Source: a virus. Taken from it: a DNA stretch of 64,000 nt. The position numbers and the translations under genes were made by a program. The notes under the pieces are model-generated. The model was not told where the DNA came from and did no database searches. It saw nothing but the letters and a program-made list of their open reading frames with translations. The DNA lies in the IMG/VR virus record IMGVR_UViG_3300011972_000003, positions 1-64,000 of that record; one strand, written 5' to 3'. This document shows, piece after piece, positions 6,280-25,820 of this stretch. Position 1 is the first letter of the stretch; every line of letters begins with the position of its first letter.

Positions 6280-6505
6280 ATTTAGTGTATGCAGGTTCTT
6301 AAGATGGGATGGATTCAACGTAGATAATTTTATTGAGGAGCTTAAGGGGGAGATAAAACAAGACTCCCTCAAGGTTTCCCCAAATGAGAGTGACCCTACG
6401 ATGATGGACTTAGAGGTTTCAATCCCGCCAGAACTTAGGCATACAGTAGAAAATATATTAAAGAAGTACACAAAAATATACACGTGGATCAATGAACAGC
6501 TATAA
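6266..6505 (+). CDS. hypothetical small protein (79 aa)
   Basis: Short ORF filling the gap between neighbouring genes, with overlapping stop and start codons on both sides. Confidence 0.3.
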   Translation: MEEHRFSVCRFLRWDGFNVDNFIEELKGEIKQDSLKVSPNESDPTMMDLEVSIPPELRHTVENILKKYTKIYTWINEQL

Positions 6506-9875: not shown

Positions 9876-10116
9876 TCTAGAGTTAACAAGAATAAAGGTG
9901 CTGGTTAAGAGAGATACGATGGATACAACTTTCTTAACTGTAGAGGGGAATATAAAGGAAACTGGTACGATATTTGCAGTAGGAAAAGACTGTGAGCACT
10001 TACAACCTGGAGATAGAGTATGGCTAGGACACAGAACTGGAGTAAAGTTAAATTACGAAGGGGAAGAGGTAGAGCTTATGGATGAAGATGAGGTTTTAGG
10101 AAAGATATTAAGTTAG
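9868..10116 (+). CDS. co-chaperonin GroES/Cpn10 homologue (82 aa)
   Basis: RIKVLVKRDTMDT..TIFAVGKD..LQPGDRVWLGHRTGVKLNYEGEEVELMDEDEVLGKI aligns along the whole length with GroES [58 protein letters not shown]. Confidence 0.7.
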   Translation: MSNLELTRIKVLVKRDTMDTTFLTVEGNIKETGTIFAVGKDCEHLQPGDRVWLGHRTGVKLNYEGEEVELMDEDEVLGKILS

Positions 10117-10382
10117 TGATGATTCAGGTAGCATTAGTAGTAGCAGATTGGTGTAATGGTTGTCATAAAGTCCTTGAGAAAATAGAGGCATCCGACATCA
10201 ATCTTGACTACCTGAAAATAGCGGTCTTTGAGGAGAACTTAGAGCTGTGTAACCAAGCTGGAGTCAAATCAATCCCTACAGTCCTGTTTTTAAGCCATTC
10301 TGGGACACTTCTCGATCGGATTGACAGTGACATAACCCCAGAGAAAATAGAAGAAAAGTATAACAAATTAAAAGAAGAATAA
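10116..10382 (+). CDS. thioredoxin-like protein (88 aa)
   Basis: WCNGC CxxC motif. GVKSIPTVLFL matches the Trx cis-Pro region. Second Trx-fold gene, flanking GroES. Confidence 0.6.
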   Translation: MMIQVALVVADWCNGCHKVLEKIEASDINLDYLKIAVFEENLELCNQAGVKSIPTVLFLSHSGTLLDRIDSDITPEKIEEKYNKLKEE

Positions 10383-10611: not shown

Positions 10612-10959
10612 ATGAGGAAGGTAATTGCAGTTTTAGGGATCACTCTTAGTTCACTGGCTTATTCACAACAACAATATGCTTCTTACTATGGTGACAACTT
10701 TCATAACAGGAATACAGCATCAGGTAAAAGGTTAAATATTTATGGAGACCACTGTGCACATAAGACATACCCTTTTGGAACTAAACTTTTAATAACAAAC
10801 ACAAATACTGGAGCTACTGCCGTTTGTACTGTAATTGATAGAGGTCCGTTTGTAAAGAATAGAGTACTAGATCTTACAACGACAACTTTTAAGCAATTAG
10901 GTGGAAAACTCAGAGACGGCTTAATTCCAGTAACAGTTAAAGTTCATGAGCAAAGCTAA
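10612..10959 (+). CDS. RlpA-like double-psi beta-barrel (DPBB) protein with signal peptide
   Basis: ASYYGDNFHNRNTASGKRLN...AHKTYPFGTKLLITNTNTGATAVCTVIDRGPF matches the RlpA/DPBB signature ASWYG..FHG..TASGE...AAHKTLPFGT.V.VTN..NG.SV.VRVNDRGPF. Confidence 0.6.
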   Translation: MRKVIAVLGITLSSLAYSQQQYASYYGDNFHNRNTASGKRLNIYGDHCAHKTYPFGTKLLITNTNTGATAVCTVIDRGPFVKNRVLDLTTTTFKQLGGKLRDGLIPVTVKVHEQS

Positions 10960-11303
10960 CAAAATAGATATTCAAACCCTCTCTTGGAACCAGCATATTA
11001 GACACAGACCAGGCATGTACGTCTCGAATGTGGATAACCCGACTGTGATTCTAAGGGAGGTTATTGATAATGGAATAGATGAAGTTTTAGGAGGTTACGC
11101 TTCAAAGTTAGGATTTAAACAAGTAGGGGATTTCTTAATGGTATATGATAATGGTAGAGGTATGCCGATTAACCTTAAGAATGACCCAACTAATCCTAAA
11201 GTAAAAATAACCTCTGCCGAAATAGCCACCTCTCGTATGAATTCAGGTAGTAAGTATGAGAAGAATGAGGTCGCAACTGGCATGAATGGTGTGTCATTGA
11301 TTT
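10946..11303 (+). CDS. type II topoisomerase ATPase subunit (GyrB / T4 gp39-like), exon 1 (GHKL domain)
   Basis: HIRHRPGMYV resembles VRKRPGMYIG. REVIDNGIDE resembles YEVVDNSIDE. DNGRGMP resembles DNGRGIP. GMNGVSLI resembles GLHGVGVSVV. The frame hits a stop at 11309 while the NALS motif continues in the downstream exon frame. Confidence 0.7.
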
Positions 11304-11634
11304 TCAGTTAGTTACGCACTCCTCTAGGGAAACTTAGGGGTAATAAAGTCCAAGAACTGCTGGGATAAACTCGTTAAGTAGTAAGTACCAAAGTGTGACA
11401 ATCTTACTAATAGAGACAATCAGCAGCCTTTAGATTAACTAGGGGTTCAACGACTATCGAAAGGTTCGCCGAGTAGAGTACGCTATAAGTCAATAATGAT
11501 AGTGGAAGCATGGACTACCCTAACGTAAAGCCGAGGGTAAAGATATAGTCTAGCCTTAGTGGAGACACTGAGAAGTTCATAGGAGAACTGCATAGGTTTG
11601 ACGAGCCTGTGTGACTAAAAGCGAGGAACAAAAG
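11304..11634 (+). ncRNA. group I self-splicing intron, no ORF, in the topoisomerase II gene (boundaries approximate)
   Basis: Joining 11303 to 11635 reconstitutes GMNGVSLISSNALS (cf. GLHGVGVSVVNALS), with a U before the 5' splice site and a terminal G. The core contains GACAATCAGCAGCC (11415..11428), GGGGTTCAACGACTATCGAAA (11442..11462) and AAGATATAGTCT (11540..11551). These are the same blocks as in the RNAP beta intron. Confidence 0.6.
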
Positions 11635-13133
11635 CATCTAACGCTCTATCTTCAACTTATGTATTATGTTCAAAGGTTACAAAGGATAACTATAAAACCA
11701 GCATAAAGAAAGTAGAAGAAGCGTATAATAAGAATAAAGATGTTTACTACCTGATAGAGTTTAAAGAAGGGAATAAGGTTCGTGAAGATGTACTTAGTTT
11801 GGAGGAGATATTTAAAAAGTACAAGTTGAAAGTGAAGTTGGAGTTTAAACCTTCTACCCTCGTATTCTTTAAACCAGATTATACACTTATCCAATCACCT
11901 AACTATGAATTACCGCTTACAAACCTAGCTCTTGTTAAGTTAATTGTTAAGGAGACTACGAAGAAAGAGGTAGAGTATTTTATAGAAGGTAAGGAGGTTG
12001 AATATGAACTCTTTAAGTGCCCTCTAAATATGACAATAGGGAAAACCAGACTCTTAACAACCTTTGATTTTGATACAGATTTAACTAAGGGAGTATCTAA
12101 GGGATCAGTTAACTCACTTGTTGTTAATAGAGGTCTACATATAAGAGAGATGGAGAATGCTTTAAAGGAAGGGCTTAGAGTGACTTATAATTTAGATGAT
12201 GTTTATGTTCAGTTTGTTTTGAAAGGACTTAACTTATCTATAATACTCTTAGCTAATGAAGTAGGGTTCTCATCTCAAACTAAGGAAAATCTCACTCAAA
12301 TAGATGGTTGGGATAAAAGTTGTAGAGAGAAGTTAATTGAAGAGGTTACTAAGTTTTTAAAGAAGAATAAGGCTGAGTTTGAAGAGCATATTGAGAGAGT
12401 TAAGGAGTTTACCGCCTCTATGAACAAACTTAAAAATATGGACTTCATTAAATCTAAGGTTATCCTCTCTTCTGATATTCGTAAAAGTAAAGGAGGTAAA
12501 GAGATTAGTAAGCTTAGGGATTGCAGCACCAGTAATCGAGCGGATGCAGAACTTTATATCGTAGAGGGAGATTCGGCAGCAGGTTCAATTACATCAGCGA
12601 GAGATTCTAAAGTGCATGGAGTTTATCCGCTCAGAGGTAAGGTGCTGAACTGCCAGAATAAGTCTTTAGAGCAAGTATTAGAAAACAAAGAGATAAGAGA
12701 TTTAATTAACGCTATAGGTGCAGGGATTAAAGGGTATGAACTAAAAGAGAAGCCGAGATTTGGAAAGATTATAGTGGCTACTGATGCTGATGATGACGGT
12801 TATTCTATTCAAGCTTTAGTTCTAGGAGTATTTGGAGAGTATATGCCGCACTTAATTGAGAAAGGATATGTTTACTGTTTAGTTCCACCTCTATATAAGC
12901 AAGAAGGGAAGTATTATTATGACGGAGAGGAGAAAGGATTAAATAGGAATAAGAAGTTCACTCGATATAAAGGGCTTGGTACAATGAACTCTGAAGATGT
13001 AGAAGAAACGTTAATTAAGAATAAGAGGCTGAAACAAGTTACTTTGGATGACCTAGATTATGCTAAAGAAATCCTCGGTACAACTTCAGCTAAGTATGAC
13101 CTAATGAAAGAAGCTGGGATAATTTATGGCTAA
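11635..13133 (+). CDS. type II topoisomerase subunit, exon 2 (transducer + Toprim)
   Basis: Toprim motifs YIVEGDSAAGS (cf. EGDSAGGS) and IIVATDADDDGYSIQ (cf. IMTDADVDGSHI). The listed ORF starts at TTG at 11799, but the frame is open from 11619. Confidence 0.7.
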
Positions 13134-14445
13134 GAAGAATAATAAAGTAGTAACCGAGTCTATTGGAGATATAGTTTCATTCGGGTATACAGAGTTTGGG
13201 AAATACATTAATACATCAAGAGTGTTTCCTAGGCTTCTCGATGGACTTAAACCTTCCTATAGACGTGGTATTTATGCATCTTATTTAGGAGGAAAGGATT
13301 ATGCAAAGTCAGCTGAGGTTTTAGGTAATATGATGAAGTTCCACCCTCACTCTACAGATGGGACGTATGAATCACTGGCAAAGTTTACGCTCTGTGGTAT
13401 TTTAGAAGGAGAAGGGAGTTTTGGTAGAGCTGATATTCTAGGAGATTCTGATGGTCCAGCTGCTGCTCGTTATACCGCTATTAAAGTATCAAAGAAACTC
13501 AGAGCGATGATAGAGCCAGTGTTAGACCTCGTCCCATGGCAAGATAGTGAGGTGAATGGAAATATAAAAGAACCGTCATACCTTCCTACACCATTTCCGT
13601 TATCCTTCTTAGTTGATAGGGTTTCTGGATTAGGGATTGGAGTTTCAGCTATCTTACCAACGTTTTCTATGGAGAGTATGTATGAAGCTTATATAACTAA
13701 TGACCCTAAGAAGCTGAAGTATAGAACTAAGGGACTTAAGATTATAGCAAAAGATTCAGACTTAGATGCACTATGGAAAACAGGGAAAGGATATCTAACT
13801 TACCAGTATGCCAAAATAACAAAGGGAGATAGGGAAGTTCTTATAGAGGGTGACCCAAGTAGATTTCCTATTCAGTTAGATAAAGGTGGTAAGGGAGATG
13901 ACAAACTATTTATGCAGTATAGAGAAGAGGGAAGAATATTAATTGACAACCTCTCCGACAAAACAAAACCAGGACTTCTAAGAGTTTACCTTTCACCGGG
14001 AACTAGAGGAGTGGATATAGACTGGCTGCATAAATACCTAACAGAAAAAGCTACCCACAAGGAAACGTATATGATTAATGTTACTGATGGAGAGACTGTT
14101 AGAACTATAGGGATTAGAGAGTGGATAGATATAACTTACAATAATTACATAAACCTACTGAACTTAAACCGGGATAACAAATTAAAGAGCCTAGAGTTTA
14201 GTAAGAAAGTTTACCTAGCTATGCCTGAAGTGGTTAAAGTATTTCTAAAGGATACGAGTGTCACAAATGAGCAGCTGGCAAAGAAGACCAAAGTAGATTT
14301 AGAGATTATTAAAGTTATTATGTCTAAGCCTATAGGTACACTGAGAAAGACTGATTCAGAAGCTAAGATTAAAGAAATAGAAAAAGAAATAAAAGCACTG
14401 AAGAAGTTTAAAGCGGAAGAATTTATCAAAGAACACATATTTTAA
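13126..14445 (+). CDS. type II topoisomerase DNA breakage-reunion subunit (GyrA / T4 gp52-like)
   Basis: SRVFPRLLDGLKPSYRRGIY resembles RALPDVRDGLKPVHRRVLY. HPHSTDGTYESLAKFT...GSFGRADILGDSDGPAAARYTAIKVSK resembles [40 protein letters not shown], including the catalytic Tyr region. Confidence 0.7.
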   Translation: MAKKNNKVVTESIGDIVSFGYTEFGKYINTSRVFPRLLDGLKPSYRRGIYASYLGGKDYAKSAEVLGNMMKFHPHSTDGTYESLAKFTLCGILEGEGSFGRADILGDSDGPAAARYTAIKVSKKLRAMIEPVLDLVPWQDSEVNGNIKEPSYLPTPFPLSFLVDRVSGLGIGVSAILPTFSMESMYEAYITNDPKKLKYRTKGLKIIAKDSDLDALWKTGKGYLTYQYAKITKGDREVLIEGDPSRFPIQLDKGGKGDDKLFMQYREEGRILIDNLSDKTKPGLLRVYLSPGTRGVDIDWLHKYLTEKATHKETYMINVTDGETVRTIGIREWIDITYNNYINLLNLNRDNKLKSLEFSKKVYLAMPEVVKVFLKDTSVTNEQLAKKTKVDLEIIKVIMSKPIGTLRKTDSEAKIKEIEKEIKALKKFKAEEFIKEHIF

Positions 14446-14457
14446 TACACAACAATT

Positions 14458-14694
14458 ATGAGAGCATTACTTGAGGACATCTTATTAGAGAACGGTTGGA
14501 ACAAAGCAGATGGAGTAGTTAACAAATCAATCCGAATCAATGGAGTAGAAATTTGGGAAGCTGAATGGTTAGGAGGAGAGTTACTGGGAAGAGTGAATGG
14601 GAAGATTAGAAATATTGTTACACTGTTTGAAGAAATGAAGTTGAATAAGACTGTAGCAAGAGCCGCTTTTCTTAGTATATTGAGACCGGCTTAG
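14458..14694 (+). CDS. hypothetical small protein (78 aa)
   Basis: ORF only. Confidence 0.35.
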   Translation: MRALLEDILLENGWNKADGVVNKSIRINGVEIWEAEWLGGELLGRVNGKIRNIVTLFEEMKLNKTVARAAFLSILRPA

Positions 14695-14814
14695 GCTGTG
14701 GGGAAAACCTTATATATGAGAAGAGAACTACAGGAGAGTGTATTTGGCGGCATTTTCCTGTTCTTCTAATCTCACGTGTAAATCAAATAAGTATAACAAA
14801 AAAAAAACAACATT

Positions 14815-15231
14815 ATGAGCACAAACAGAAACAAAACAGGAAAATTAAACTTGAACGTACAAATGAAACAAGCTATCGATTTAAGTTTAGCTTCAGGAGT
14901 ACCAGTTTTATTCCTGTCAAATCCCGGATGTTTCACTGAGGATACCAAAGTTATAACTGACAAAGGGGAATTAACTTTTGGAGAACTTTTAGAGAGACAT
15001 AATCAAGGGGAAAAATTTAGTGTAGTTTCTTGGGATACAGAAGCTCAGCAAGAAATTAACCCAGCTATGAAGTCAGCGTTTATCACAAAAGAGGTGGATG
15101 AGCTTATTGAAGTAGAGTTAAGTAATGGAGAAGTTTATAGATGTACTCCTGATCACTTACACCTACTTGCTGACGGAAAGACTTGGGTAGCTGCTGAGGA
15201 ATTAACAGTAGGACAAGAAGTAAAGGGGTAG
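14815..15231 (+). CDS. MoxR-like AAA+ ATPase N-extein (38 aa) fused to a split-intein N-fragment (IntN, about 100 aa)
   Basis: GVPVLFLSNPG is the start of the Walker A motif. It is immediately followed by CFTEDTKVITDKGE (intein block A, Cys1 at 14929..14931) and ...YRCTPDHLHLL (block B, TxxH). The protein ends at a stop after about 100 intein residues, as split-intein IntN fragments do. Confidence 0.7.
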   Translation: MSTNRNKTGKLNLNVQMKQAIDLSLASGVPVLFLSNPGCFTEDTKVITDKGELTFGELLERHNQGEKFSVVSWDTEAQQEINPAMKSAFITKEVDELIEVELSNGEVYRCTPDHLHLLADGKTWVAAEELTVGQEVKG

Positions 15232-15237
15232 AAAATT

Positions 15238-16257
15238 ATGGAAGAGATTAGCAGACTTTTTTATGTGAATTTCAGTGTTAAAGATTTAGTAGAGTATACC
15301 GGTGGAGATCAGTTTATAGATTTATTTCTCCAAGCTAAAGGGTATAAAATCTACAACTTCTTTAATAACCTGACAAACCAGCACTACGTAGGGGATAATT
15401 CATCAACTATGCAGGAGCGTCTGTTTAACTCTCTATTCGGACATTTTACCTACTTAAGAGAACAAAGGGACTATGGTGTAGATGGGAAGTACTTAGATAT
15501 ATTAGAGTACGGGCCAGAGAACTTTTACATTAGAATCTTACCACCTATTAATGGACATACTTACGATCAAGAAAAAGATGAAGAAGTGTGGATTAGTAGG
15601 CTTAATGCTTTTGTAGGGGATTTAAATGAGCTTAACCTTCCGGGATACAATAGAAGTAGAACTGGAAAGGGAATTTATTTAAATGAACCTATAAGACATG
15701 AAAAGATTTGTGTAAAGGGTAAAGACGGGTGTTATAAATTCATTTTTCCAAGCGAGCTAACTGAAGAGTTTATAGAGGTTGATTCAAAGGAATTTTATTC
15801 AGAGATGGGGAAACGGGGTATGCAGACTCACAGGGAAAATGGAACACACGTATTTAACAAAGCTCACCAAGTAAAACTACAGAAAGCTGGACTTAAATCT
15901 CAAAAGGAAAATGGTACAGGAATCTACAGCCCAGAAGTTAGAGAGAAGGCTTTTTATAATAGTCGTAAATCTCTAAGGGAAAGGAAAGTAGGTAGCTGTC
16001 ACGATCCAGAGCTTCAGAAAAAGATTAGAGAGTATGCCACTAAGGTATCATTCTTTAATAGGCTCAATGAAAGTATCCAGTTAATCTATGATATGTTTTA
16101 CAGAGGGACGCCAATTAATGAGCAGAGTTATAATTACGTGAAAACAAACAAACACTTCTCGTATAAAAAACTTCTGGTAATCCCTAAAATTATACCCCTC
16201 ATCATAGTCAATAACTTAATAAATAATAACAACAGTACACATTATGGAATCAACTAA
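15238..16257 (+). CDS. free-standing ORF (339 aa) between the split-intein halves; candidate homing endonuclease (family not recognised)
   Basis: It lies exactly between the IntN and IntC genes. Its end overlaps the IntC start by 14 nt. No LAGLIDADG, HNH or GIY-YIG motif was recognised with confidence. Confidence 0.4.
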   Translation: MEEISRLFYVNFSVKDLVEYTGGDQFIDLFLQAKGYKIYNFFNNLTNQHYVGDNSSTMQERLFNSLFGHFTYLREQRDYGVDGKYLDILEYGPENFYIRILPPINGHTYDQEKDEEVWISRLNAFVGDLNELNLPGYNRSRTGKGIYLNEPIRHEKICVKGKDGCYKFIFPSELTEEFIEVDSKEFYSEMGKRGMQTHRENGTHVFNKAHQVKLQKAGLKSQKENGTGIYSPEVREKAFYNSRKSLRERKVGSCHDPELQKKIREYATKVSFFNRLNESIQLIYDMFYRGTPINEQSYNYVKTNKHFSYKKLLVIPKIIPLIIVNNLINNNNSTHYGIN

Positions 16258-17566
16258 AATAACAGTAAAAAGCATAAAAAGAATTAAATTAGAAGCACCA
16301 GTAAAAGTATATGATTTGGAAGTAGATCACCCGAGTCATAACTTTAAATTAGCCGCTGGGAACTTCGTGCATAACTGTGGGAAAACTACGATTGTGCAAA
16401 AATACGCCAAGGCTAATGGATATGGATATGTAGGAATTAACGGGGGTGAGTATTCTCCTGAAGATATCCTAGGTTTCCCAGTGAATCAGAATGGTGAAGC
16501 AGTAAACCTAAAGCCGGACTGGTTCAAGAAAGTGGAGGAAGAATCTGCTACTCATGAAAAGGTAATCTTATTTATTGACGAGTTAACTACCGCTTCTGAG
16601 TATGTACAGTCTCCGCTATTGAAGGTGATCTTTGATAGAATGGTGGGTCAGAGAAAGTTACCATCAAATGTAGAGATTATTTCTGCAGGTAACTATCAGG
16701 AGAATCTAGGGCAGAACTTTGACCTTATCTCTCCAATTATTAACAGATTCATGGTGTATAACTTAATATCTGTGACAAAGGAGGACTTCCAGTTGTTCCT
16801 AGACGCTGACTTCGCCGCTACAATAGACTTTAGAGAGTCACCAGATGAAGTAGAGGTTGATGAGAAAGTTATCCAAGAGGCACTTATGGACTTCATCGCG
16901 GCGAAAGGGCTTAGTCTAGATGTAATGAATAATACTGAGCTTTCTGATTTATATAGAGGGAGAAGTAGAGTATTCAACCCGCCAACATGGAGATCTGTAG
17001 GTAGACTTAAACCACTCCTACACGCCGCTGCTAAGAAAGGTCTATTAGGGTCTATGGTAACTAAAACTCTAGTAAATGGTCTAATTGGATTCCTACCTGA
17101 TAAAGAGCTTCAAGGTTCATTCAACGGAGATGTGGGAGAAACTCTAATAAATCTTCTAAAACAAAATCCAGCTCTATCTAATTTAATGAAGACTGCGGTA
17201 ACGTTTAAAGATGTTGAGTGGTTCTTAGATTCAAACATAGAGAAAGGAATTGATGAGGCTAAACTTCAAGAATTCTTAGAGATGTTTGATAAGGATAGTA
17301 AGATCTTAACCTTTGGTGAGGCTGAGAAACTGATTGATAACTTCTCCTCTAAACTATGGTCAATCAAGACTACTTACCTTAAACCTAAATTAGAGAACAA
17401 AGAGATTAAGCCAGCGGACAGTAAAGCTTATATTAGCAAGTTCTCAGAAGGTATTAACAAGGTGATTGATGTACTTGAGAAATTAGCCAAGAAAGATGAT
17501 ATTCACGAGCACAACATAGTTAAGAATAAGAGAAAGTCTGTTGAATCAGTTAATAGAATCGGGTAA
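16244..17566 (+). CDS. split-intein C-fragment (IntC, 44 aa) fused to the MoxR-like AAA+ ATPase C-extein
   Basis: KVYDLEVDHPSHNFKLAAGNFVHN matches intein blocks F and G (VYDLxV..HNF...hVHN), followed by the +1 Cys. CGKTT then completes the Walker A motif begun in the N-extein (SNPG|CGKTT). Walker B is at ILFIDELTTAS. IISAGNYQEN...LISPIINRF resembles the MoxR sensor and Arg-finger region. Confidence 0.75.
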   Translation: MESTKITVKSIKRIKLEAPVKVYDLEVDHPSHNFKLAAGNFVHNCGKTTIVQKYAKANGYGYVGINGGEYSPEDILGFPVNQNGEAVNLKPDWFKKVEEESATHEKVILFIDELTTASEYVQSPLLKVIFDRMVGQRKLPSNVEIISAGNYQENLGQNFDLISPIINRFMVYNLISVTKEDFQLFLDADFAATIDFRESPDEVEVDEKVIQEALMDFIAAKGLSLDVMNNTELSDLYRGRSRVFNPPTWRSVGRLKPLLHAAAKKGLLGSMVTKTLVNGLIGFLPDKELQGSFNGDVGETLINLLKQNPALSNLMKTAVTFKDVEWFLDSNIEKGIDEAKLQEFLEMFDKDSKILTFGEAEKLIDNFSSKLWSIKTTYLKPKLENKEIKPADSKAYISKFSEGINKVIDVLEKLAKKDDIHEHNIVKNKRKSVESVNRIG

Positions 17567-17568
17567 AC

Positions 17569-19101
17569 ATGAGAAAGGATTATGTAAAGAAAGTAGATGA
17601 GTTTAACAGCAAATACTACGTTAACTACATCTACGAAGACATCTCAGACAATTTAGATCCGAGTCACATGGGAGTTCCTATTGCTGGGTTAATTCAAAAG
17701 GATATAACTCACTGGAAACTTCTGATGAGGGAGAGCGTGTTTGAAGATAAGGAGAGTAAAATAAGAGAGAGTGTTATATATCATGAGTATGGACACGCTT
17801 TCTTTGCTCACCACCTCCTAGCTTATAAGGGTTTAAAGACTCTGGAGGGGATTATTAACAAACCGGATTATGTAGAAAGGATGGCCAAAATAAGCGGTCG
17901 TCCTAAAATCTACATAAAGGCTCTTCTATCTAACCAGCAGTTTATATTCAACCTTCTTAACATTGCTGCAGATTGTGAGATTAACTCTAAGATCTTAACT
18001 CTGGAGGATGTAGAAGCTATAGACCAGGCCTTTGAAGCTGACTCTATCCACCCATCTAAGTATGCATTCCTTGAGGGTAAAACTTATCTTGAGTACGTAG
18101 AAATGGTAGCTGAGTATCTAAACTTATTCCTACCACCAAAACAACAAGATCAACAGGGAGGCGGAGACGGACAACAGGGAGAAGGAGAAGGCGAAGGTGA
18201 TGGTCAAGGTGGAGGTTCTGGAGAATGGGATTTATCTGGAATGCCTGGCTCTGGTACTGGATCTAACTTTATTACACCTGACATGATCGAGAAAATGGTT
18301 GATGAAGGTTTGATAGATGAAGATGGGAACTTGACAGATAAAGGTAAGGAGCAGATGAAGGAGCTTAAGAGTTCTGGAGGTGAATCTAAAGAAGGTCAGG
18401 GAGAGTCTAGTGGAAATAATGGTGAAGATGGAGAACAAGAAGGTGGAGCAGGAAAGCCAGACCCTAGATTCCAAGATAATGGTAGAGGGAACTCAGGAGG
18501 AGCAGTACTAACTAGGAATACTCAGAATATCTTAAAGTCTATGGATGATTTGTTTAGAGACTTGAGAAATAAAGAGGTAACTAAAATGACTACTACAAGA
18601 AACCTATTTAAGAATCAATTAAGGGGTCGTAGTGGTAATATGTACGTTCCAGCTCTTAAGATGAACCCAGCTAAGGTAAAGGTTGAACAAATGACCTTCC
18701 TTGTTGATGTCTCCGGGTCTATGGATGAGCGTTCTATTTTCGGTATTATAAACGATATCGCAACTAGAGTGAAGAAGATAGGTCTAGATAGGGTTAGGCT
18801 TATTACATGGAATACTGGATTTGTACAAGACTTGATGATAAGAGATTTTGAGCCTAAGAGAGGTATGCTTCGTATTGGAGGTGGTACTGATCTAGCTAAA
18901 GGTTTAAAACATATCAGAGAGCTTGACGAAGGTGTTCCTATTGTAGTAATATCTGACCTTTGTGATGACATGAAAGCTTGGAATAGAGAGTTTGACAAAA
19001 TAAAAGATCCCAAGTATGTTGTTACTCTAGGACATGTAAATAAAAGTGACGTAAAAGCGATAAACAAGGATGTGAAAATCTTTGAGAGCGATTACGATTA
19101 A
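17569..19101 (+). CDS. von Willebrand factor A protein with N-terminal HExxH metallopeptidase-like domain (MoxR partner, DUF2201-like architecture)
   Basis: VIYHEYGHAFFAHH carries an HExxH motif. A Gly/Glu/Gln-rich low-complexity linker follows. FLVDVSGSMDERS is the MIDAS DxSGS motif, and ..GGGTDLAKGL matches vWA. Confidence 0.7.
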   Translation: MRKDYVKKVDEFNSKYYVNYIYEDISDNLDPSHMGVPIAGLIQKDITHWKLLMRESVFEDKESKIRESVIYHEYGHAFFAHHLLAYKGLKTLEGIINKPDYVERMAKISGRPKIYIKALLSNQQFIFNLLNIAADCEINSKILTLEDVEAIDQAFEADSIHPSKYAFLEGKTYLEYVEMVAEYLNLFLPPKQQDQQGGGDGQQGEGEGEGDGQGGGSGEWDLSGMPGSGTGSNFITPDMIEKMVDEGLIDEDGNLTDKGKEQMKELKSSGGESKEGQGESSGNNGEDGEQEGGAGKPDPRFQDNGRGNSGGAVLTRNTQNILKSMDDLFRDLRNKEVTKMTTTRNLFKNQLRGRSGNMYVPALKMNPAKVKVEQMTFLVDVSGSMDERSIFGIINDIATRVKKIGLDRVRLITWNTGFVQDLMIRDFEPKRGMLRIGGGTDLAKGLKHIRELDEGVPIVVISDLCDDMKAWNREFDKIKDPKYVVTLGHVNKSDVKAINKDVKIFESDYD

Positions 19102-19138
19102 ACAATAACTAACAAATCTTTAACTAACTATATAATTT

Positions 19139-20137
19139 ATGATTTTAAGTATCGACTGTGGGTACGGACACTTTAAGTACTGTATCTACGATGAAAAAAC
19201 AAGTAAAATTATTAAGTTAGATAAAGAGGTTACAGGTGTGATAGAGGTGCCAGAAGGAGATTCATCCATGGTTACCTCTGTTGCAACCTACCACCACTTC
19301 GATGGAAAAAGGTATTTAGTGGGTGAGCTGGCGACAAAACTAGACCGGCTCCCTATTGATACTTTAACTTACGAAGGATTCAAGGAGGTAGGACCAATAC
19401 TAATCTCTTATCTACTTAACAAATTCCAATCAGAAGGTATTGAAAAGATCGCTTTGGGGTTGACCCCCGTGATCTGGGATAAGCGTGAAGATTACAAAAG
19501 CTATATCTTAGAGAAACTTAATTTGCCTTCCGAAAAGATAGATATTCATGTTCAAGGTCTTTCAGGTCACGCTACTTATTCACAGTACGGACTAGATATA
19601 AACCCTGATGGAAAAATCTCTATGGAAGCTAAATCTGCTAACTATTTTGGACTGGACGTTGGGTTTAATACAATAGACACTTACCTTGTTTTAAATAACT
19701 CTCTCCTCGATTATGGGATTAAAGGGTTTGCAAATAAAGGTGTAGTTCTTGTAGCAAATAAAATTAAAACCCATATCTTTGAACACCTTGGAATCTCTAT
19801 AAATGATGTTGAAGCTAAGGAAGTGGTAACGATGGGAGGTTATAAGAAGAGAGGTAAGTTCCACGATTTATCAGACAAGATCACTGAGTTTATCGTAGAG
19901 TACCTAACTTCAACCTTCAATATGTTAGAGGAGGAGTATGGAGATCAGTTTAACAAAGTAGATAATATTCTTCTATTTGGTGGAGGAGCTGAGATAATTA
20001 AGATCTACATGGAGAAGTCAGACGTTATTAGAAAAACAATAGCTGACCTTTATGGAGATGAGTTCCTATTACTACCAAAAGATAAAGCAGAGTATTACAA
20101 CACAATCGGATATTCACTATTAAGCAGCAAGAAATAA
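19139..20137 (+). CDS. actin-like ATPase (ParM/Alp family)
   Basis: Phosphate-1 motif ILSIDCGYGHFKY. Phosphate-2 motif YFGLDVGFNTIDTYLV. Adenosine motif ILLFGGGAEII. C-terminal connect-2 motif IGYSLL. Confidence 0.6.
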   Translation: MILSIDCGYGHFKYCIYDEKTSKIIKLDKEVTGVIEVPEGDSSMVTSVATYHHFDGKRYLVGELATKLDRLPIDTLTYEGFKEVGPILISYLLNKFQSEGIEKIALGLTPVIWDKREDYKSYILEKLNLPSEKIDIHVQGLSGHATYSQYGLDINPDGKISMEAKSANYFGLDVGFNTIDTYLVLNNSLLDYGIKGFANKGVVLVANKIKTHIFEHLGISINDVEAKEVVTMGGYKKRGKFHDLSDKITEFIVEYLTSTFNMLEEEYGDQFNKVDNILLFGGGAEIIKIYMEKSDVIRKTIADLYGDEFLLLPKDKAEYYNTIGYSLLSSKK

Positions 20138-20138
20138 G

Positions 20139-20702
20139 ATGAAGACAGTAACATTTGTACACACCTCAGATGAATTAGTTTTAGAGGCAGTAAAGAAAGC
20201 ACTATCAGAAGGGTATGGTAAGGAGTTTGACAATATACTAATCACATCCGAAGAACTACCTGAACCTGAAGAGAATTTCCTAAAGACCCAGTGCATCCAG
20301 TTTCAAGTTAAGAGAGATGTAGAGGCTATGATTTCAGCTGATACTATTATAATTGACACAAACGACTGGAACCCTTATACTTGGTTTACTTTAGGAATGG
20401 CTTATAGAGTGGCTTGGCTTAAGAATAGAAAAGAGCTGATTACTGTTGGAGAGCATAGCATAAGTGAAATCCAAAAGTACCTAGAAGAGTGGAATGATGT
20501 ATATAAGAACTGGGTAAATGGAAATCCTGTAGAGTTTAAGTTTGATGTTAATAGAGCTTCAGATGTTCTTGCTTGGGTTAGACTTGGATACCTTTGGGGA
20601 GATGTAAATAATAACTACCATATTGTATCTAAACTTGTAGGAGACCCTCAGCCTAGTGACTATATTATTAAGTTCTTATCAACCGATGTAGCTTATGAAT
20701 AA
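20139..20702 (+). CDS. hypothetical protein (187 aa)
   Basis: ORF immediately downstream of the actin-like gene. A weak Rossmann-like pattern is present (ADTIIIDTNDW..TLGMAY). Confidence 0.45.
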   Translation: MKTVTFVHTSDELVLEAVKKALSEGYGKEFDNILITSEELPEPEENFLKTQCIQFQVKRDVEAMISADTIIIDTNDWNPYTWFTLGMAYRVAWLKNRKELITVGEHSISEIQKYLEEWNDVYKNWVNGNPVEFKFDVNRASDVLAWVRLGYLWGDVNNNYHIVSKLVGDPQPSDYIIKFLSTDVAYE

Positions 20703-21534
20703 TATGTTTGAGTTTCTGATTAAAAAGTTACATGTCATTAAGTTAGTTGTTTTAGCTCTCATTATTGCAGTAGTGTGGTATGGGTATAGGAGTATGGTGA
20801 GAGTAGAGCCTAACTATGAAGGTGTAATGATGTCTAACTTTGGAAGGAACGGGAAATCTGATTTTAATGTGGTAACAGGGAGACAATGGACTCTACTGCC
20901 TGGAACAAGATTATACCAAGTGCCTATGTTTGAGACTTCAGGGGATCCAGATCAGGTTACTATTTCAGCTAAAGATGCAGGAGTATTTACAGTTGACCCT
21001 TCTTACCAGTATCAGCCAATTAGAGGTAGAGGTGTAGATATTGTATTTAGTTATAAGCATCTTGGAGTGGAGGACCCTAAAGTTATGCTGGATAATGTAG
21101 AGGTCTCAATCTTAAACAAACTCGTAGTAAATGCCTATAGAGAAGAAGCTAGAGAGTATACTACAGATGGGCTGATGAATAACCTGAATGAGTTTGAAAA
21201 GAAAGTAGAGAATAGACTTAAGAAGGACTTTGAGGCTAAACACTTTCAACTAACCAATCTAACTTCTGGACTTAAACCTCCTAAATCAATGGAAGACGCT
21301 ATCGAAAGGAGAAACAACATGATCCTAGAGAAAGAGAAAGTTCAGAACGAGTTGGAGGTTTCTAAAATGAATCTGGAGAAAGCTAGGATAGAAGCTGAAA
21401 CAAATAAGGTTAAATCCAAAGGCCTAGATGAAAAGCTACTACAAGAAAAATGGATAGACGCTATTAGAGAGACTGAAAATAAGGTGATCATTACAGACGG
21501 AAAAGTCCCTGCACCTATAATTATAAAAGAGTAA
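20695..21534 (+). CDS. SPFH/Band-7 (prohibitin/HflK-like) membrane protein
   Basis: N-terminal TM segment LVVLALIIAVVWYGY. The SPFH-like core runs from GVMMSNFGR to HFQLTNLTSGLKPPKSMEDAIERRNN, which resembles GITLLDVNFQAARPPEEVKAAFDDAI. A C-terminal coiled coil follows. Confidence 0.6.
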   Translation: MNNMFEFLIKKLHVIKLVVLALIIAVVWYGYRSMVRVEPNYEGVMMSNFGRNGKSDFNVVTGRQWTLLPGTRLYQVPMFETSGDPDQVTISAKDAGVFTVDPSYQYQPIRGRGVDIVFSYKHLGVEDPKVMLDNVEVSILNKLVVNAYREEAREYTTDGLMNNLNEFEKKVENRLKKDFEAKHFQLTNLTSGLKPPKSMEDAIERRNNMILEKEKVQNELEVSKMNLEKARIEAETNKVKSKGLDEKLLQEKWIDAIRETENKVIITDGKVPAPIIIKE

Positions 21535-21542
21535 AGAAAAAG

Positions 21543-21728
21543 ATGAACAACCAGACTAAAATATATCTCCTACTGTTTGCCATAATCCTGAATATACTTC
21601 TCATTGGTTACGGTTTTAATTATCGGCCAGCAGTAGGAATGGTTGTCTTCGTTTTAGCAATATTAATCTGGAGTTATTTCCCTTATGACAAATATTTTAA
21701 CGAATGGAACAAACGGAAAGAAGAATAG
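21543..21728 (+). CDS. small two-TM membrane protein (61 aa)
   Basis: Two hydrophobic helices. It overlaps the next gene. Confidence 0.4.
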   Translation: MNNQTKIYLLLFAIILNILLIGYGFNYRPAVGMVVFVLAILIWSYFPYDKYFNEWNKRKEE

Positions 21729-22768
21729 TTGATCATTACGAGGATATAAAGTTTGACTTACACTACCCTCACTACTTCAGCTATAGTTACGTCGGTACCC
21801 CCATTACAGTTAGGTATAAGGAGGGACAGTTAATTAAATCCTCACCTATGGACAAAGAACTCACAGAAAGTTTACCTAAAGAAGTCAATCCCGCTATTAC
21901 AAGGTTAAAGTGTATGTTAGTGGAAAATAGGCTTGTTACAGGAGATTTTAGGGTTATTGTCTATGATATATCTGTGAACTCAAAATTAGGGGTTAAATAC
22001 GGATTCCTTGAGAGCCTAAGACCTATGAGTAATGATAAGTTTTGTGTAGGTGAAATATTTGGATTCCTCACTGACACACTTATAAAACCCACCATAGTTA
22101 AGATAAGAGATTGGGAAGGATTTGAAGCTCGTATAGATGGGTTATGGCACTTTGGAGAGGAAGAGTTTATTTACAGTCTTAAGGAGAGAAAACTATTAGA
22201 TGTAGAAGTAGAAGGACTTAGCGTAACTCTCCAGTACGACCACGAGAAAGATATGCTTATTCCTCACTTAAATATAGCTGGGGATAGGATTGGTGGTAAG
22301 TGGACTAGATTGGTAGAAGTTAAAGCGAATGACGTAGCTAAGAAAGGAGTAACCAAAGGGTGTAAGCTTATAGTAGATTGTAACGCTGACATTGTGAACA
22401 TACTAGAAAAGGGTGAACCTGAAGATATAGTATGTAAATGTGGAACTAAGCTTGGTAAAGAAGATGTTATAGGTAATTATTTCAAGTGTAGTAATGAAGA
22501 GTGTCAGCAAAGTTGTAACTCTCTTATGTCGATGTATATGGGGAGAACAATAGACTCTGAGTACTTCTTTAAGCTTCTAAGGCTGCCTAACTTTAAGTTC
22601 AAAACCCGAGTAAAAGAAACTTGGTGCCTCTCAGATCAATTAGCTATAAAAGATTTCGAGAGTTACCTTAGATATTTGAAACAAGGAACGAACTTAACAA
22701 AGGCACAAGAGAAAGCAATAGAAATAAACGCACTTAGATTGTATAACTTGCTAAATGATGATGATTAA
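21704..22768 (+). CDS. hypothetical protein with C-terminal Cys-rich zinc-ribbon-like motif
   Basis: CKCGTKLGK...CSNEECQQSC. Confidence 0.45.
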   Translation: MEQTERRIVDHYEDIKFDLHYPHYFSYSYVGTPITVRYKEGQLIKSSPMDKELTESLPKEVNPAITRLKCMLVENRLVTGDFRVIVYDISVNSKLGVKYGFLESLRPMSNDKFCVGEIFGFLTDTLIKPTIVKIRDWEGFEARIDGLWHFGEEEFIYSLKERKLLDVEVEGLSVTLQYDHEKDMLIPHLNIAGDRIGGKWTRLVEVKANDVAKKGVTKGCKLIVDCNADIVNILEKGEPEDIVCKCGTKLGKEDVIGNYFKCSNEECQQSCNSLMSMYMGRTIDSEYFFKLLRLPNFKFKTRVKETWCLSDQLAIKDFESYLRYLKQGTNLTKAQEKAIEINALRLYNLLNDDD

Positions 22769-23267
22769 ATTACCAGACATAGAACTTCCAGATAAGAATA
22801 TAGAACCGAGGGAGCTTGTAGATTACGCAATACACAAAGGTTTTAAAGTAGAGGTAGATGAGGATTCTTTTGAGGTTAAGTTAGTGTGTAATAAGGTAAC
22901 AGAAGTATATCTCCTAAACCCAATAATTAATAGATACAGCAAGATATATGTAGAGGGAGATGGGAAGCAGAGAGTTAGGTTTGCAAGTTTGTTTTACCTA
23001 GTAGATGCTCCTGTTATAGTCCTGTCTCATATGCTGTCTATTTTAATCTTAGGGATCTCTATCTTCTTATCAGGTAATATAGCAGGATTTAGTTTGATAG
23101 GGGTGGTGGTGATACTAGTTACTTTGGCAGATTACGGCTGGAGAAACCACAAGATGACTAGGGTAACTAAACCTCTATGGATCTATAAAAATTTGATGAT
23201 AAGTATTTCCCTGACATTAATTTGGATGAGTATACTTTTTAGAGCTGTAACAATAATAGAAATGTGA
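22755..23267 (+). CDS. membrane protein (C-terminal multi-TM)
   Basis: Hydrophobic segments LSHMLSILILGISIFLSG and LIGVVVILVTLADY. Confidence 0.45.
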   Translation: MMMIKLPDIELPDKNIEPRELVDYAIHKGFKVEVDEDSFEVKLVCNKVTEVYLLNPIINRYSKIYVEGDGKQRVRFASLFYLVDAPVIVLSHMLSILILGISIFLSGNIAGFSLIGVVVILVTLADYGWRNHKMTRVTKPLWIYKNLMISISLTLIWMSILFRAVTIIEM

Positions 23268-23268
23268 A

Positions 23269-23766
23269 ATGACAAAGATAATAATCAAAAAGAGGGAGGT
23301 ATTGCTTGGAGTAGTGAGCGTATCTTCAGAGGATTTTAGAGATGCTGATAAAGTTGATGCTCTAATTAAAAACAAACTACTCGATAAAATAAGTAAACAG
23401 ACTCCAACTTTTAGTACAATTCAGGAGTTATTCTTACACTATTGGAATGCTTATGGACTTGAAGTATTCCCGTTAGACATTGAAGGAGAATTAGAGCTTG
23501 TAGATGATATGACTTATGGGCTTGTTAGATTTCCACTAGATAATAACGGTATACAGAAAGGAATAATAAGACCATACCAAGCAGGAGGAGTAGCTGAATT
23601 AGGGAAAGTAGTATTAGATTATATGTATATCCCTTCAGAAGACTTTTTATCAGGTATTTCAGAGATGAGCTTAGATTTACCACTGAGAACTGCTGAGGTT
23701 GAGAATATGACTGAGTACTTAAGAACAAGAGGAGTAAATATAGAAATTGTGAACTACCATGAATAA
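23269..23766 (+). CDS. hypothetical protein (165 aa)
   Basis: ORF only. Confidence 0.4.
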   Translation: MTKIIIKKREVLLGVVSVSSEDFRDADKVDALIKNKLLDKISKQTPTFSTIQELFLHYWNAYGLEVFPLDIEGELELVDDMTYGLVRFPLDNNGIQKGIIRPYQAGGVAELGKVVLDYMYIPSEDFLSGISEMSLDLPLRTAEVENMTEYLRTRGVNIEIVNYHE

Positions 23767-24283
23767 GTATCTAATAATAAGCCACTATAACGGACTAGAA
23801 TCTGATGGGGCTATAATAAAGATTGAAGAAGGAGAATCTACATTAAACCACCTTATAGAGTACATTTCAGACAGGGAGGATTTAATGGGACAGACGAGAC
23901 CTTATATCGATGCATTCAAACTTAAGGAACTAGACGAGAGCGGAGCGTTTAACTCTATAACTCTTGCAATGGCTCCTTATGGTTTTCAAGTAGTATCTGT
24001 TAATTATGAAGGAGAGATTGAAGATGACAGAGAAGACAAATGGGTAGTAATCGATAATGAGAATAACGTAAAATTCATAACTACAGATAACATTGACCAA
24101 GAAGAGTTAGTGAAATTTGTTACTGTTATGTTGAGTTCTCTAAAGGTTTCTAAGACTATACTGAACAAAGAGGTGGAGAGAGTGAGAGCTAATAGTGACA
24201 TTCTTAACATCGATACACTTTCAGGATTAGGTATTATTAACTCTTTATTGTTTACTCATGGTTTTAGATCATTCTTTTGTTAG
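23759..24283 (+). CDS. hypothetical protein (174 aa)
   Basis: ORF only. Confidence 0.4.
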   Translation: MNKYLIISHYNGLESDGAIIKIEEGESTLNHLIEYISDREDLMGQTRPYIDAFKLKELDESGAFNSITLAMAPYGFQVVSVNYEGEIEDDREDKWVVIDNENNVKFITTDNIDQEELVKFVTVMLSSLKVSKTILNKEVERVRANSDILNIDTLSGLGIINSLLFTHGFRSFFC

Positions 24284-24674
24284 TGCAGCAGCCAAGATAG
24301 GAGATGGGTTATATGGTAAAGGGTTTTTGAGATTAGAGATTATAAATGGGCAGTATATGCTTGTAGGGGAAGGGGTTATAAACGTAGATCATCTTATCAG
24401 GAGGTTTACAAGAGTTAAGACAAGTAAAGCTGTTTTAGCTCCTAGTGATACCTTTGCTTTATATACAGGTCTTAAGAATCTCATTGACTATTATAACCTA
24501 AGCATGACAGACGGTAAATTCTCTAATGACCTACTGATAAATCCAACAGAAAAGGGAATGGAGGTTTATGCGTTCATGAAAGATAGAGTGGAATTAGTAT
24601 GCAAATTAGAGTTCTTTTCTTCGGAGAGTTCTTTTATGATGTGGTTACTAAAGAAGCTAGGTAAACTTGATTAA
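24258..24674 (+). CDS. hypothetical protein (138 aa)
   Basis: ORF only. Last gene of the plus-strand block. Confidence 0.4.
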   Translation: MVLDHSFVSAAAKIGDGLYGKGFLRLEIINGQYMLVGEGVINVDHLIRRFTRVKTSKAVLAPSDTFALYTGLKNLIDYYNLSMTDGKFSNDLLINPTEKGMEVYAFMKDRVELVCKLEFFSSESSFMMWLLKKLGKLD

Positions 24675-24689
24675 ATTAAAGACAAAAAT

Positions 24690-24748
24690 AGGGAGCAGCC
24701 CGGGGTTAAATTTCCTCAGGTTGCTCCCTTTAACTTTATTTTTTTTTT
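24690..24748. terminator. bidirectional intrinsic terminator between convergent gene blocks
   Basis: Hairpin AGGGAGCAgcc-[loop]-ggTTGCTCCCT (24690..24729) followed by TTAACTTTATTTTTTTTTT. It sits between the last plus-strand gene (ends 24674) and the endolysin stop (24753). Confidence 0.5.
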
Positions 24749-24752
24749 CGCC

Positions 24753-25235
24753 TTAGATGCTCACGTACGGCGTCTTTTGAACTTTATATTTGCTTTGTAG
24801 AGATGAAATAGTCTGTCCAAAAGTCTTCTGAAAGTGCGGCATATCTCTGAATCTCCAGTTTCCTCCCCATTCCCATCCATACTTCTTAAATATAGCAACA
24901 ATCTCTAGCCAATCAGCCACACCATCTTTATCTGAATCCATATTAGCGTCCCAACTTACCTTTGTTCCGTCTTTTGATAGTAAGCAGATATCGATAGCAA
25001 GACCGTAGTTATGATATGATTGACCTCCTCTTGCATTAGTTACGATAGATCCTTTTACAGTTCTGCCTTGTGCATAAAGTTTGTCTTGTTCTGCGTGCGT
25101 TCTAAGTGTATGAGTAAATCTTAAAGTGTAGTCACCAGTAAGTTTAGCTGATGCTTCTTCTAAGATTTGTTTTGCTTCTGTTCTCAATTTAGGATGTAGA
25201 AGCTCTATTCTTTGTAGTGATACTTTGTCTAACAT
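24753..25235 (-). CDS. endolysin, peptidase M15 (VanY / L-alanyl-D-glutamate peptidase-like)
   Basis: SYHNYGLAIDI matches SxHxxGxAxD, and DMPHFQ matches the zinc-ligand motifs of the LAS/M15 family. Confidence 0.75.
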   Translation of the reverse strand: MLDKVSLQRIELLHPKLRTEAKQILEEASAKLTGDYTLRFTHTLRTHAEQDKLYAQGRTVKGSIVTNARGGQSYHNYGLAIDICLLSKDGTKVSWDANMDSDKDGVADWLEIVAIFKKYGWEWGGNWRFRDMPHFQKTFGQTISSLQSKYKVQKTPYVSI

Positions 25236-25238
25236 TGA

Positions 25239-25820
25239 TTATAGGTATTTTTTGAATTTAGTCCTTATAACCCAGATACTTCCAGCAATAAGGATAAGTA
25301 TAATAAGAATCCACCAAGGGAAAGACCGATTATCTGCATCTACCTTCTTGACTCGCTCGTGGGATTTATTTTCCGTATCTTTCTTAATTTTAACTTCTCC
25401 TTGAGCCTTCTTATTTACTTTATTTAGGCTGTCTATTTTTCTTTCTTCTTTTGTCTCTACTGCTTTATCTGTGGTTTTATTAGAGTTTACATTAGAGATA
25501 GTTCCATTCTTTACTTTACCTTTATAGAGCTTATCATTAACATATACTTCAAATTCAGCTTCCTCATTCTCGTTAATTGGAGTAAAGTAGAATTCGTCCG
25601 TGTTAATAAGTTCTTTTAGGTTCACCACTTCTTTCTTCTCCTCTACAACTTTATTTTTAACTACTGCTGCAGAGTCTACTTTCATCGAGGATACTGAATC
25701 AACCTTTTCTACGATTTCTTCTTTCTTCTCCTCCTTAAGCACCTTACGAGTTCCACATGATGTTAGGGCTAAAAGTAAGGCTACCATTAAACTAAGATAA
25801 GTACACTTTTTCATTGTCAA
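25239..25820 (-). CDS. candidate unimolecular spanin (N-terminal lipoprotein signal + C-terminal TMD)
   Basis: Lipobox MTMKKCTYLSLMVALLLALTSC. C-terminal TM segment FPWWILIILILIAGSIWVI. Directly upstream of the endolysin. Confidence 0.5.
   Translation of the reverse strand: MTMKKCTYLSLMVALLLALTSCGTRKVLKEEKKEEIVEKVDSVSSMKVDSAAVVKNKVVEEKKEVVNLKELINTDEFYFTPINENEEAEFEVYVNDKLYKGKVKNGTISNVNSNKTTDKAVETKEERKIDSLNKVNKKAQGEVKIKKDTENKSHERVKKVDADNRSFPWWILIILILIAGSIWVIRTKFKKYL

Follow-up and report, generated by a model that had tools for sequence, protein, structure and literature searches.

A divergent actin-like ATPase of the ParM/Alp type encoded by an uncultured phage with a genome of about 185 kb

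The gene at positions 19139–20137 of the 64-kb stretch of phage DNA analyzed here (referred to as the window) encodes a genuine bacterial-actin ATPase of the ParM/Alp type, as judged from its fold, its family and its intact ATP site. The product, an actin-like protein (ALP), belongs to a rare and essentially phage-specific family, PHROG 691, which is already annotated and thus not new, and of which the window protein is a divergent member. In our judgment the protein probably, if far from assuredly, is a catalytically competent actin that forms an ATP-driven filament to organize the lytic cycle rather than to partition a plasmid.

The reading frame is found exactly as described in the original prediction, in position, strand and length (Table 1). 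It is preceded by a gap of 37 nt, and its GC content is ordinary relative to the rest of the window. The four motif strings quoted in that prediction are all found in the translation, and the fifth motif, which was not quoted, is connect 1 with Q139 and G140. Together with two RNase-H-like lobes, the five Bork motifs identify the protein as a member of the ASKHA fold in the alignments, the structure model and the fold searches alike. In the comparison of the family profile with PDB sequences, phosphate 1 aligns with “IDLGYGQIK” of pCBH ParM, while phosphate 2 and the adenosine motif align with “IIDLGGTTLD” and “VIGGGAELI”, respectively, of R1 ParM. Connect 1 is situated within the string “IHVQGLSGH” and aligns with “FPQGAGA” of pCBH ParM; here, Q139 is invariant in both alignments (A1 and A2), and G140 is invariant in A1 and nearly so in A2. 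By its position in the fold, Q139 corresponds to Gln137 of actin. The connect-2 string GYSLL comprises residues 324–328.

Table 1. Positions in the window of the ALP gene, its actin-fold motifs and the adjoining downstream reading frame
Feature	Positions	Strand	Remarks
ALP gene (332-aa actin-like protein, ParM/Alp superfamily)	19139..20137	+	uninterrupted ORF, ATG start
Phosphate-1 motif IDCGYGHFK, residues 5–13	19151..19177	+	D6, G8, K13 invariant (alignments A1, A2)
Connect-1 / catalytic position, Q139-G140	19553..19558	+	invariant / near-invariant columns
Phosphate-2 motif LDVGFNTID, residues 172–180	19652..19678	+	D173, G175, D180 invariant; T178 nearly invariant
Adenosine motif FGGGAEI, residues 280–286	19976..19996	+	G281-G283 invariant (A1, A2)
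Connect-2 region NTIGYSLL, residues 321–328	20099..20122	+	N321, G324 invariant (A1, A2)
ORF187, 187 aa, begins 1 nt past the ALP stop	20139..20702	+	proposed partner, role unsupported

Sequence profiles place the protein in the ParM/Alp superfamily with scores well in excess of chance, i.e., it matches profiles of ALP families and is closer to these than to Hsp70, MreB or sugar kinases. Two Pfam families are matched, MreB-like_C (PF21522; 9e-12, 46.1 bits at a cut-off of 27.8) and Alp7A_like_C (PF22128; 1.7e-6, 28.3 bits at a cut-off of 22); ALP_N and ParM score under their own cut-offs, and the MreB/Mbl family profile gives no Pfam match, i.e., the protein is not assigned to MreB. The single match among the PHROGs is PHROG 691, named “partition protein” (7e-22), which spans residues 1–327 of ALP and positions 4–320 of the 329 in the profile; membership in this family is seen also from tblastn matches, at a coverage of at least 80%, to 36 phage records. 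The NCBIfam ParM equivalog PRK13917 yields 20.4 bits at a cut-off of 417, so that ALP does not qualify as an R1 ParM equivalog; the other faint match in NCBIfam is to PRTRC protein D. As a single-sequence query ALP matched none of the PDB chains, and a profile was required. The family profile, built from 12 homologues, matched bacterial actins only, with the phosphate-1, phosphate-2 and adenosine motifs in register: pCBH ParM (8e-7), R1 ParM (2e-6), Alp12 (5e-6) and AlfA (1e-3), followed by Dh-cParM1, Alp7A and CorM. Neither Hsp70 nor FtsA, PilM or sugar kinases were matched by ALP in Pfam, in NCBIfam or in the PDB profile search.

The structure model leads to the same assignment. The AlphaFold2 (AF2) model, built from a 23-sequence alignment, has a pLDDT of 89.1 and a pTM of 0.88, with low scores confined to a loop at residues 43–48, and it comprises the four subdomains of actin without any additional domain. 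Fold searches with this model returned hundreds of actin-fold matches. In the comparison with known structures, the highest score was obtained with pCBH ParM (26.8), followed by CorM (26.1), Dh-cParM1 (25.6), Ta0583 (25.5), BeeR (24.7), Alp7A (24.4) and Cbc-ParM (23.1). Hsp70-type domains (at most 22) and sugar kinases (at most 17) make up a second tier, and MreB and FtsA scored 21.9 and 20.3, respectively. Foldseek ranked the structures in identical order (pCBH ParM, 3e-16). The assignment to the ParM/Alp type that was originally made is thus borne out by sequence profiles, by a confident model and by fold searches; the alternative outcome named with it, in which sugar kinases or Hsp70-type proteins would head the ranking, did not materialize, as the top matches are ParM-type actins.

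These data also bear on the possibility that the protein is an actin-fold ATPase that does not polymerize, i.e., an Hsp70-like chaperone or a protein-binding regulator or scaffold such as FtsA, PilM or EutJ. We regard this reading as unlikely, because the profile matches are all to ALP families and none to the non-polymerizing ones listed above, because 332 residues make up a bare actin core without a substrate-binding domain, and because the structures nearest to the model are all filament formers.

The gene is under strong purifying selection. In a comparison with the orthologous block on a metagenome contig (L005) its dN/dS is 0.048, the lowest of the 11 genes of the block, and the protein retains 95% amino-acid identity at a dS of 0.48, as compared to 47–90% for its neighbors. 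Within this phage group, ALP is 94–99% identical across 16 IMG/VR contigs. On a larger scale, 23 homologues with identities down to 19% have the invariant residues D6, G8, K13, Q139, D173, G175, D180, G196, G201, G281–283, N321 and G324 in common; in the actin fold, these positions serve nucleotide binding and catalysis.

The family is represented in 36 of 50,697 GenBank phage records when the window protein serves as query, and in 39 when the Acinetobacter member does. All of these carriers are large lytic myoviruses with genomes of ~110–210 kb, namely Rhizobium Kleczkowskaviridae, Campylobacter Firehammervirus (CP220, CP21), several Vibrio phages, Ralstonia RP13, Acinetobacter Ab1-TPeters, Cobetia Carin-5 and Yersinia YerA41/GN1. 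Their proteins are already labeled “MreB-like ATPase” (e.g., in Rhizobium phage RHph_TM30), “partition protein” (e.g., in Acinetobacter Ab1-TPeters), “ParM/StbA family” or “ParM-like”. Homology to the window protein extends over the full length, as for CP220 gp066 and the proteins of RHph_TM30, RP13 and Ab1-TPeters (tblastn, 2e-31 to 9e-18), and the GenBank members resemble it in size (~310–335 aa), in their motifs, in being carried by large lytic myoviruses and, often, in the company of a multisubunit RNA polymerase. The window protein differs from them in that it is only 27–29% identical to every GenBank member and probably belongs to a phage of a Bacteroidota-type host. Because the Acinetobacter member is 36–48% identical to most other GenBank members, the window protein, together with its metagenomic relatives, is placed on a separate, deep branch.

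Closer relatives (43–95% identity) were found only in metagenomes. Among 1.84 billion cluster representatives, a match at E≤1e-3 was obtained for only 207, and one at E≤1e-30 for 19. A pattern-seeded search of 185,579 species representatives of bacterial and archaeal genomes gave no relative, and the 72,556 plasmids of PLSDB gave only three weak matches of at most 26% identity; this distribution argues against a role in plasmid partition. The BFVD library of viral structures holds about five ALP-like structures, e.g., gp506 of Bacillus phage G. The view originally held that phage actin homologues are rare thus stands with regard to frequency but not with regard to novelty, as the family is already annotated. 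We found no experimental work on any ALP of the PHROG 691 family in the searchable literature. A link of the family to the Campylobacter carrier state was considered and dropped, because no paper ties that state to the gene; the carriers found here are of the CP220/CP21 type.

The phage originates from human-associated metagenomes and, at the nucleotide level, matches no phage in GenBank. Of the 16 IMG/VR contigs that harbor the same block, the three longest are 184.7, 184.9 and 185.6 kb in length, from which a genome size of ~185 kb is deduced. None of the 58 gene starts displays a strong Shine-Dalgarno sequence, which suggests a Bacteroidota-type host. The ALP gene resides in a long, co-directional block on the plus strand, which also contains genes for RNA polymerase beta'/beta-like subunits of the multisubunit type, topoisomerase II, a MoxR-type AAA+ ATPase, a vWA protein and an SPFH protein; a block on the minus strand contains a peptidase M15 lysin and tail genes. 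The gene directly upstream of ALP encodes the vWA protein, a vWA-metallopeptidase with an N-terminal HExxH motif, which forms a pair with the MoxR-type AAA+ ATPase; the two match a chaperone pair known from T4-like jumbo phages (Iyer et al., PMC7824862). Most structural proteins of the window are without any family match, neither chimallin nor PhuZ was identified in the window, and a scan for promoters and terminators gave counts no higher than those in shuffled sequence. The Jug phages, i.e., huge phages of the gut that possess RpoC as well as introns and inteins (PMC12363816), were considered and set aside, because their GC content of 27–30% and genomes of 360–402 kb do not fit this phage; the citation on ParM in that paper could be traced to no statement on the ALP family.

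For the most part, phages that carry ALP also carry a related RNA polymerase of the multisubunit type, and the combination recurs in about nine divergent lineages. The two occur together in Rhizobium phages (10 records), the Vibrio phages 150E35-1, 1.031.O and Va2, Ralstonia RP13, Acinetobacter Ab1-TPeters, Cobetia Carin-5, Yersinia YerA41/GN1, the metagenome locus L008 and the window, and the genes are often separated by only a few kb. In the Campylobacter phages and in Vibrio phages of the phiKT1024 type, ALP is present and no polymerase match was detectable. The simplest reading is that vertical descent has preserved both genes over a long period within a deep clade of virulent phages, which fits a role in the lytic cycle better than plasmid partition; their co-occurrence may reflect nothing more than shared ancestry.

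A classical type II (ParMRC-like) system would require the phage to be maintained at low copy number, as a plasmid prophage or an episome, with ALP separating sister copies by means of a ParR-like adaptor that binds a centromere. This scenario gains credibility from the best structural and profile matches, which are to plasmid ParMs (pCBH, R1, pSK41), from the name “partition protein” that databases attach to family members, and from the carriage of ParM by plasmid prophages of Bacillus and Clostridium (PMC8026635, PMC5786514). The accessories of such a system were sought at the locus, where the reading frame downstream of ALP, ORF187, had been put forward as a partner or adaptor and a nearby centromere-like repeat had been suggested as a target for a search.

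The partner proposal was not supported. In the protein databases, ORF187 is represented by five homologue clusters among 5.8 billion proteins, all of which belong to this phage lineage. A comparison of 12 ALP loci (28–95% ALP identity), in which the neighboring genes were clustered all against all, showed that it is confined to the lineage of the window and L005; it is missing beside ALP relatives of 43–70% identity, i.e., it is absent from this position in L006, L008, L025, L026, L028, L029 and the GenBank phages. Its dN/dS of 0.36 is the highest in the block, and it retains 47% identity to its L005 counterpart where ALP keeps 95%. The protein is acidic (pI 4.7), matches no family in Pfam, PHROG or NCBIfam, carries no DNA-binding signature, and its AF2 model is unreliable (pLDDT 49). 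An adaptor function for this lineage-restricted, rapidly evolving protein was consequently rejected as unsupported. ORF187 shows a motif resemblance to a protein with a nucleoside-deoxyribosyltransferase (NDT) domain encoded near ALP in L028; an identity as an NDT-like protein was discarded (hhalign probability 1.2%, BLASTP E 0.014).

No neighbor is conserved across the family among the 12 loci. One sub-clade, in Rhizobium, Vibrio and Acinetobacter phages, has a small ORF directly upstream of ALP, and a second one, represented by L025 and L026, has a small ORF directly downstream; the window contains no equivalent of either. The search for a centromere revealed no direct-repeat or tandem array of this kind near the ALP gene or elsewhere in the 64-kb window of the ~185-kb genome. 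Positions 14000–25500 hold only weak families of direct repeats, in two or three copies that are 65–83% identical and kilobases apart, and no tandem array scored above 79 anywhere in the window or was found near the gene. With neither a ParR-like neighbor nor a repeat array, i.e., neither an adjacent DNA-binding adaptor nor a repeat centromere, the accessories of type II partition are absent from the ALP locus.

Several other observations weigh against partition. Instead of a low-copy plasmid the carrier is a phage, probably lytic, whose three longest contigs are all ~185 kb; the GenBank carriers are virulent phages, T4-like ones and other large lytic types. No integrase or repressor families were encountered among the scanned proteins of the window, and the large shortfall from the ParM equivalog cut-off as well as the absence of the family from the cellular genomes searched and its near absence from plasmids, discussed above, also count against this scenario. 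We consequently assign it a small probability, comparable to that of a non-polymerizing ATPase.

Less probable still is that ALP mimics the host cytoskeleton, where it would co-polymerize or compete with MreB or FtsA to arrest division or remodel the cell wall. The protein has no Pfam match to the MreB or FtsA families and is closer to ParM-type proteins in both sequence and structure, neither sequence nor model displays a terminal amphipathic helix or an added membrane-targeting segment, and the hosts of the family differ widely in the organization of their cell walls. A joint module of the MoxR AAA+ ATPase, the vWA-metallopeptidase, ALP and the SPFH protein, e.g., for membrane-associated virion assembly, is very improbable: the genes are contiguous and co-directional in the window, L005 and L009–L024, a vWA gene lies two genes upstream of the 70%-identical ALP in L026 and an SPFH gene lies 4 kb downstream in L006, but these loci are close relatives with inherited synteny, to which the link of the MoxR/vWA pair with ALP is limited, the neighbors are different in L008, L025, L028, L029 and all GenBank carriers, and the MoxR–vWA-peptidase pair has been described on its own in T4-like jumbo phages as a chaperone, predicted to act in virion assembly (Iyer et al., PMC7824862).

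A filament that organizes the lytic cycle, which is the function we favor, may be considered in the light of known cytomotive systems. In each of the plasmid systems among Alp7A/Alp7R, AlfA/AlfB, Alp12 and CorM/CorR, a dedicated adaptor gene adjoins that of the ATPase. Alp7A/Alp7R (pLS20), AlfA/AlfB (pLS32), Alp12, CorM/CorR, BeeR and Ta0583 are all less than 20% identical to the window protein. The plasmid ParMs pCBH ParM of Clostridium botulinum (6ixw/6izr) and R1 ParM (1mwm/4a62) are 14–18% identical to it. Unlike these ParMs, ALP is encoded by a phage, no ParR gene or parC repeats were found with it, and it has almost no plasmid relatives.

The best functional model is AlpC of the Corynebacterium glutamicum prophage CGP3, likewise a phage-encoded actin-like ATPase, with which ALP is compared here by description. 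AlpC forms filaments that move the CGP3 DNA, is tethered to the phage DNA via AlpA and is needed for efficient replication, not segregation (PMC4446434, PMC5539076). The CGP3 locus differs from that of the window by a co-transcribed upstream adaptor gene, alpA, and alpS repeats, neither of which was found at the ALP gene, and CGP3 is an integrated, cryptic temperate element, unlike the large lytic carriers of the ALP family. A further parallel is offered by the PhuZ tubulin spindle of nucleus-forming jumbo phages, an NTP-driven polymer that operates in lytic infection and whose phages encode multisubunit RNA polymerases (PMC4244570, PMC8314001). PhuZ belongs to a different superfamily (tubulin/FtsZ), and its likeness to ALP is one of analogy only.

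By analogy with these systems, a sequence of events may be outlined in which ATP-bound ALP monomers would assemble into dynamic filaments in the infected cell, and hydrolysis at the site made up of the invariant D6, Q139, D173 and the GGG triplet would drive filament turnover. The filaments could then move or anchor replicating phage DNA or sites of assembly, as modeled on AlpC and PhuZ, where the link between filament and cargo would be something other than a recognizable ParR-type adaptor encoded beside the ALP gene. Polymerization, cargo and timing are all proposed by analogy, as is the suggestion that ALP may position or segregate phage DNA.

What is known of phage cytoskeletons comes mostly from tubulins (PhuZ, TubZ) and a single prophage actin, AlpC. 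A bolder proposition, which we put forward only tentatively and consider doubtful, is that the family as a whole constitutes an actin-based counterpart of PhuZ, i.e., a polymer that has long been retained in a deep clade of virulent phages with their own multisubunit RNA polymerase, where it would organize lytic replication or assembly either without a ParR-type adaptor or with one that is not recognized. The window protein would then be the first example from phages whose Bacteroidota-type hosts live in the human microbiome.

The annotation as an actin-like ATPase is in itself routine and already present in databases, and the interest of the finding is modest; it would be higher only if the family proves to be an actin cytoskeleton of the lytic cycle. 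With the window, the family comes to include an abundant, uncultured phage of ~185 kb in human-associated samples, and the diverse alignment and the confident model can now be used to design mutants. The occurrence of a phage-only actin family under strong purifying selection, in large lytic phages of very different hosts and with no recognizable adaptor or centromere, points to an actin function in the lytic cycle that is yet to be characterized.

Upstream of the gene for the actin-like (ParM/Alp-type) ATPase (ALP) is a MoxR-type AAA+ gene with an intein in its P-loop (junctions …LSNPG/CFTEDTKV… and …GNFVHN/CGKTT…), and this intein is in turn spread over three ORFs. L005, a metagenome contig with a 95%-identical ALP, retains this arrangement, and each of the pieces is matched at full coverage in 16 IMG/VR contigs of the same phage group (L009-L024), suggesting not decay but a split intein ("fractured gene"). 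Upstream of its AAA+ gene, L005 carries an IS605 OrfB/TnpB-like gene (HTH_OrfB_IS605, Cas12f1-like_TNB; L005 1204-2526), for which no counterpart ORF is found at the corresponding window position. The vWA/CoxE-like protein encoded between the AAA+ gene and ALP harbors an HExxH motif near the N-terminus (HEYGH, residues 72-76) and a Gly/Glu/Asp-rich low-complexity linker; a MoxR/vWA-metallopeptidase pair has been described in jumbo phages of the T4-like type (PMC7824862), and the two genes match it.

Features of the ALP neighborhood and of related loci
Feature	Location	Strand	Remark
RNA polymerase beta-like, first ORF	window 6492-8735	+	phrog_24349
RNA polymerase beta-like, second ORF	window 9023-9589	+	phrog_24349; weak Rpb2_7 match
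Small WCxxC ORF	window 9591-9875	+	WCDKC
Small WCxxC ORF	window 10116-10382	+	WCNGC
Topoisomerase II large-subunit/GyrB-like, exon 1	window 10946-11311	+	weak HATPase_c match
Group I intron	window 11274-11572	+	Rfam RF00028, 63.3 bits (gathering score 50), E 5e-15
Topoisomerase II large-subunit/GyrB-like, remainder	window 11799-13133	+	
MoxR-type AAA+ gene with intein	window 14815-17566	+	
AAA+ N-extein and intein N-part	window 14815-15231	+	
Free-standing 339-aa ORF inside intein region	window 15238-16257	+	no family match
Intein C-part and AAA+ C-extein	window 16244-17566	+	
vWA/CoxE-like protein	window 17569-19101	+	
SPFH/Band 7 protein	window 20695-21534	+	Pfam 1.2e-12
KITxES…SINIxF small ORFs (conserved N-terminus)	L001 5678-5983; L003 5477-5887; L004 3288-3557		
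Helical ORF, 59-77 aa	L025 1434-1613; L026 3237-3470		directly downstream of ALP
Multisubunit RNA polymerase/ALP co-occurrence	GenBank phages; L003 1287-3743; L008 4735-7827; window 2690-5812		

On the downstream side, the SPFH/Band 7 protein, with a hydrophobic segment at the N-terminus and a coiled-coil-like region at the C-terminus, is 86% identical to its L005 counterpart, and a 62% homologue is found 4 kb downstream of ALP in L006, another ALP-bearing locus. The helical ORF is common to two relatives with an ALP identity of 67-70% (L025 and L026); in the window lineage its position is taken by a 187-aa ORF. The KITxES…SINIxF ORF (L001, L003, L004), a possible sub-clade-specific partner, immediately precedes ALP in the Rhizobium and Vibrio phages; in the Acinetobacter phage the distance is 2.4 kb. 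The window has no such ORF.

Further upstream, a topoisomerase II large-subunit/GyrB-like gene is split by a group I intron, detected only in a local E-value run and missed in the whole-window gathering run. Read from their translations, the two WCxxC ORFs are suggestive of thioredoxin/glutaredoxin-like proteins. The two phrog_24349 ORFs appear to be one split RNA polymerase beta-like gene; an Rfam search of the 288 nt between them gave no match. Some nine divergent lineages of phages carry both a member of the ALP family and a non-phiKZ-type phage multisubunit RNA polymerase, frequently with a few kb between the two genes.

In its virion module this phage is very distant from characterised phages: in window 27325-56391 (-), neither Pfam nor PHROGs gave a match for any of nine large ORFs (391-645 aa), and PHROGs, the one database used for it, gave none for a 1426-aa ORF of the same region. 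None of the 58 gene starts across the window is preceded by a strong Shine-Dalgarno sequence (20 nt before the start codon) and the whole window is devoid of tRNA genes, which suggests a Bacteroidota-type host; judged by their sample identifiers, the related contigs look human-associated.
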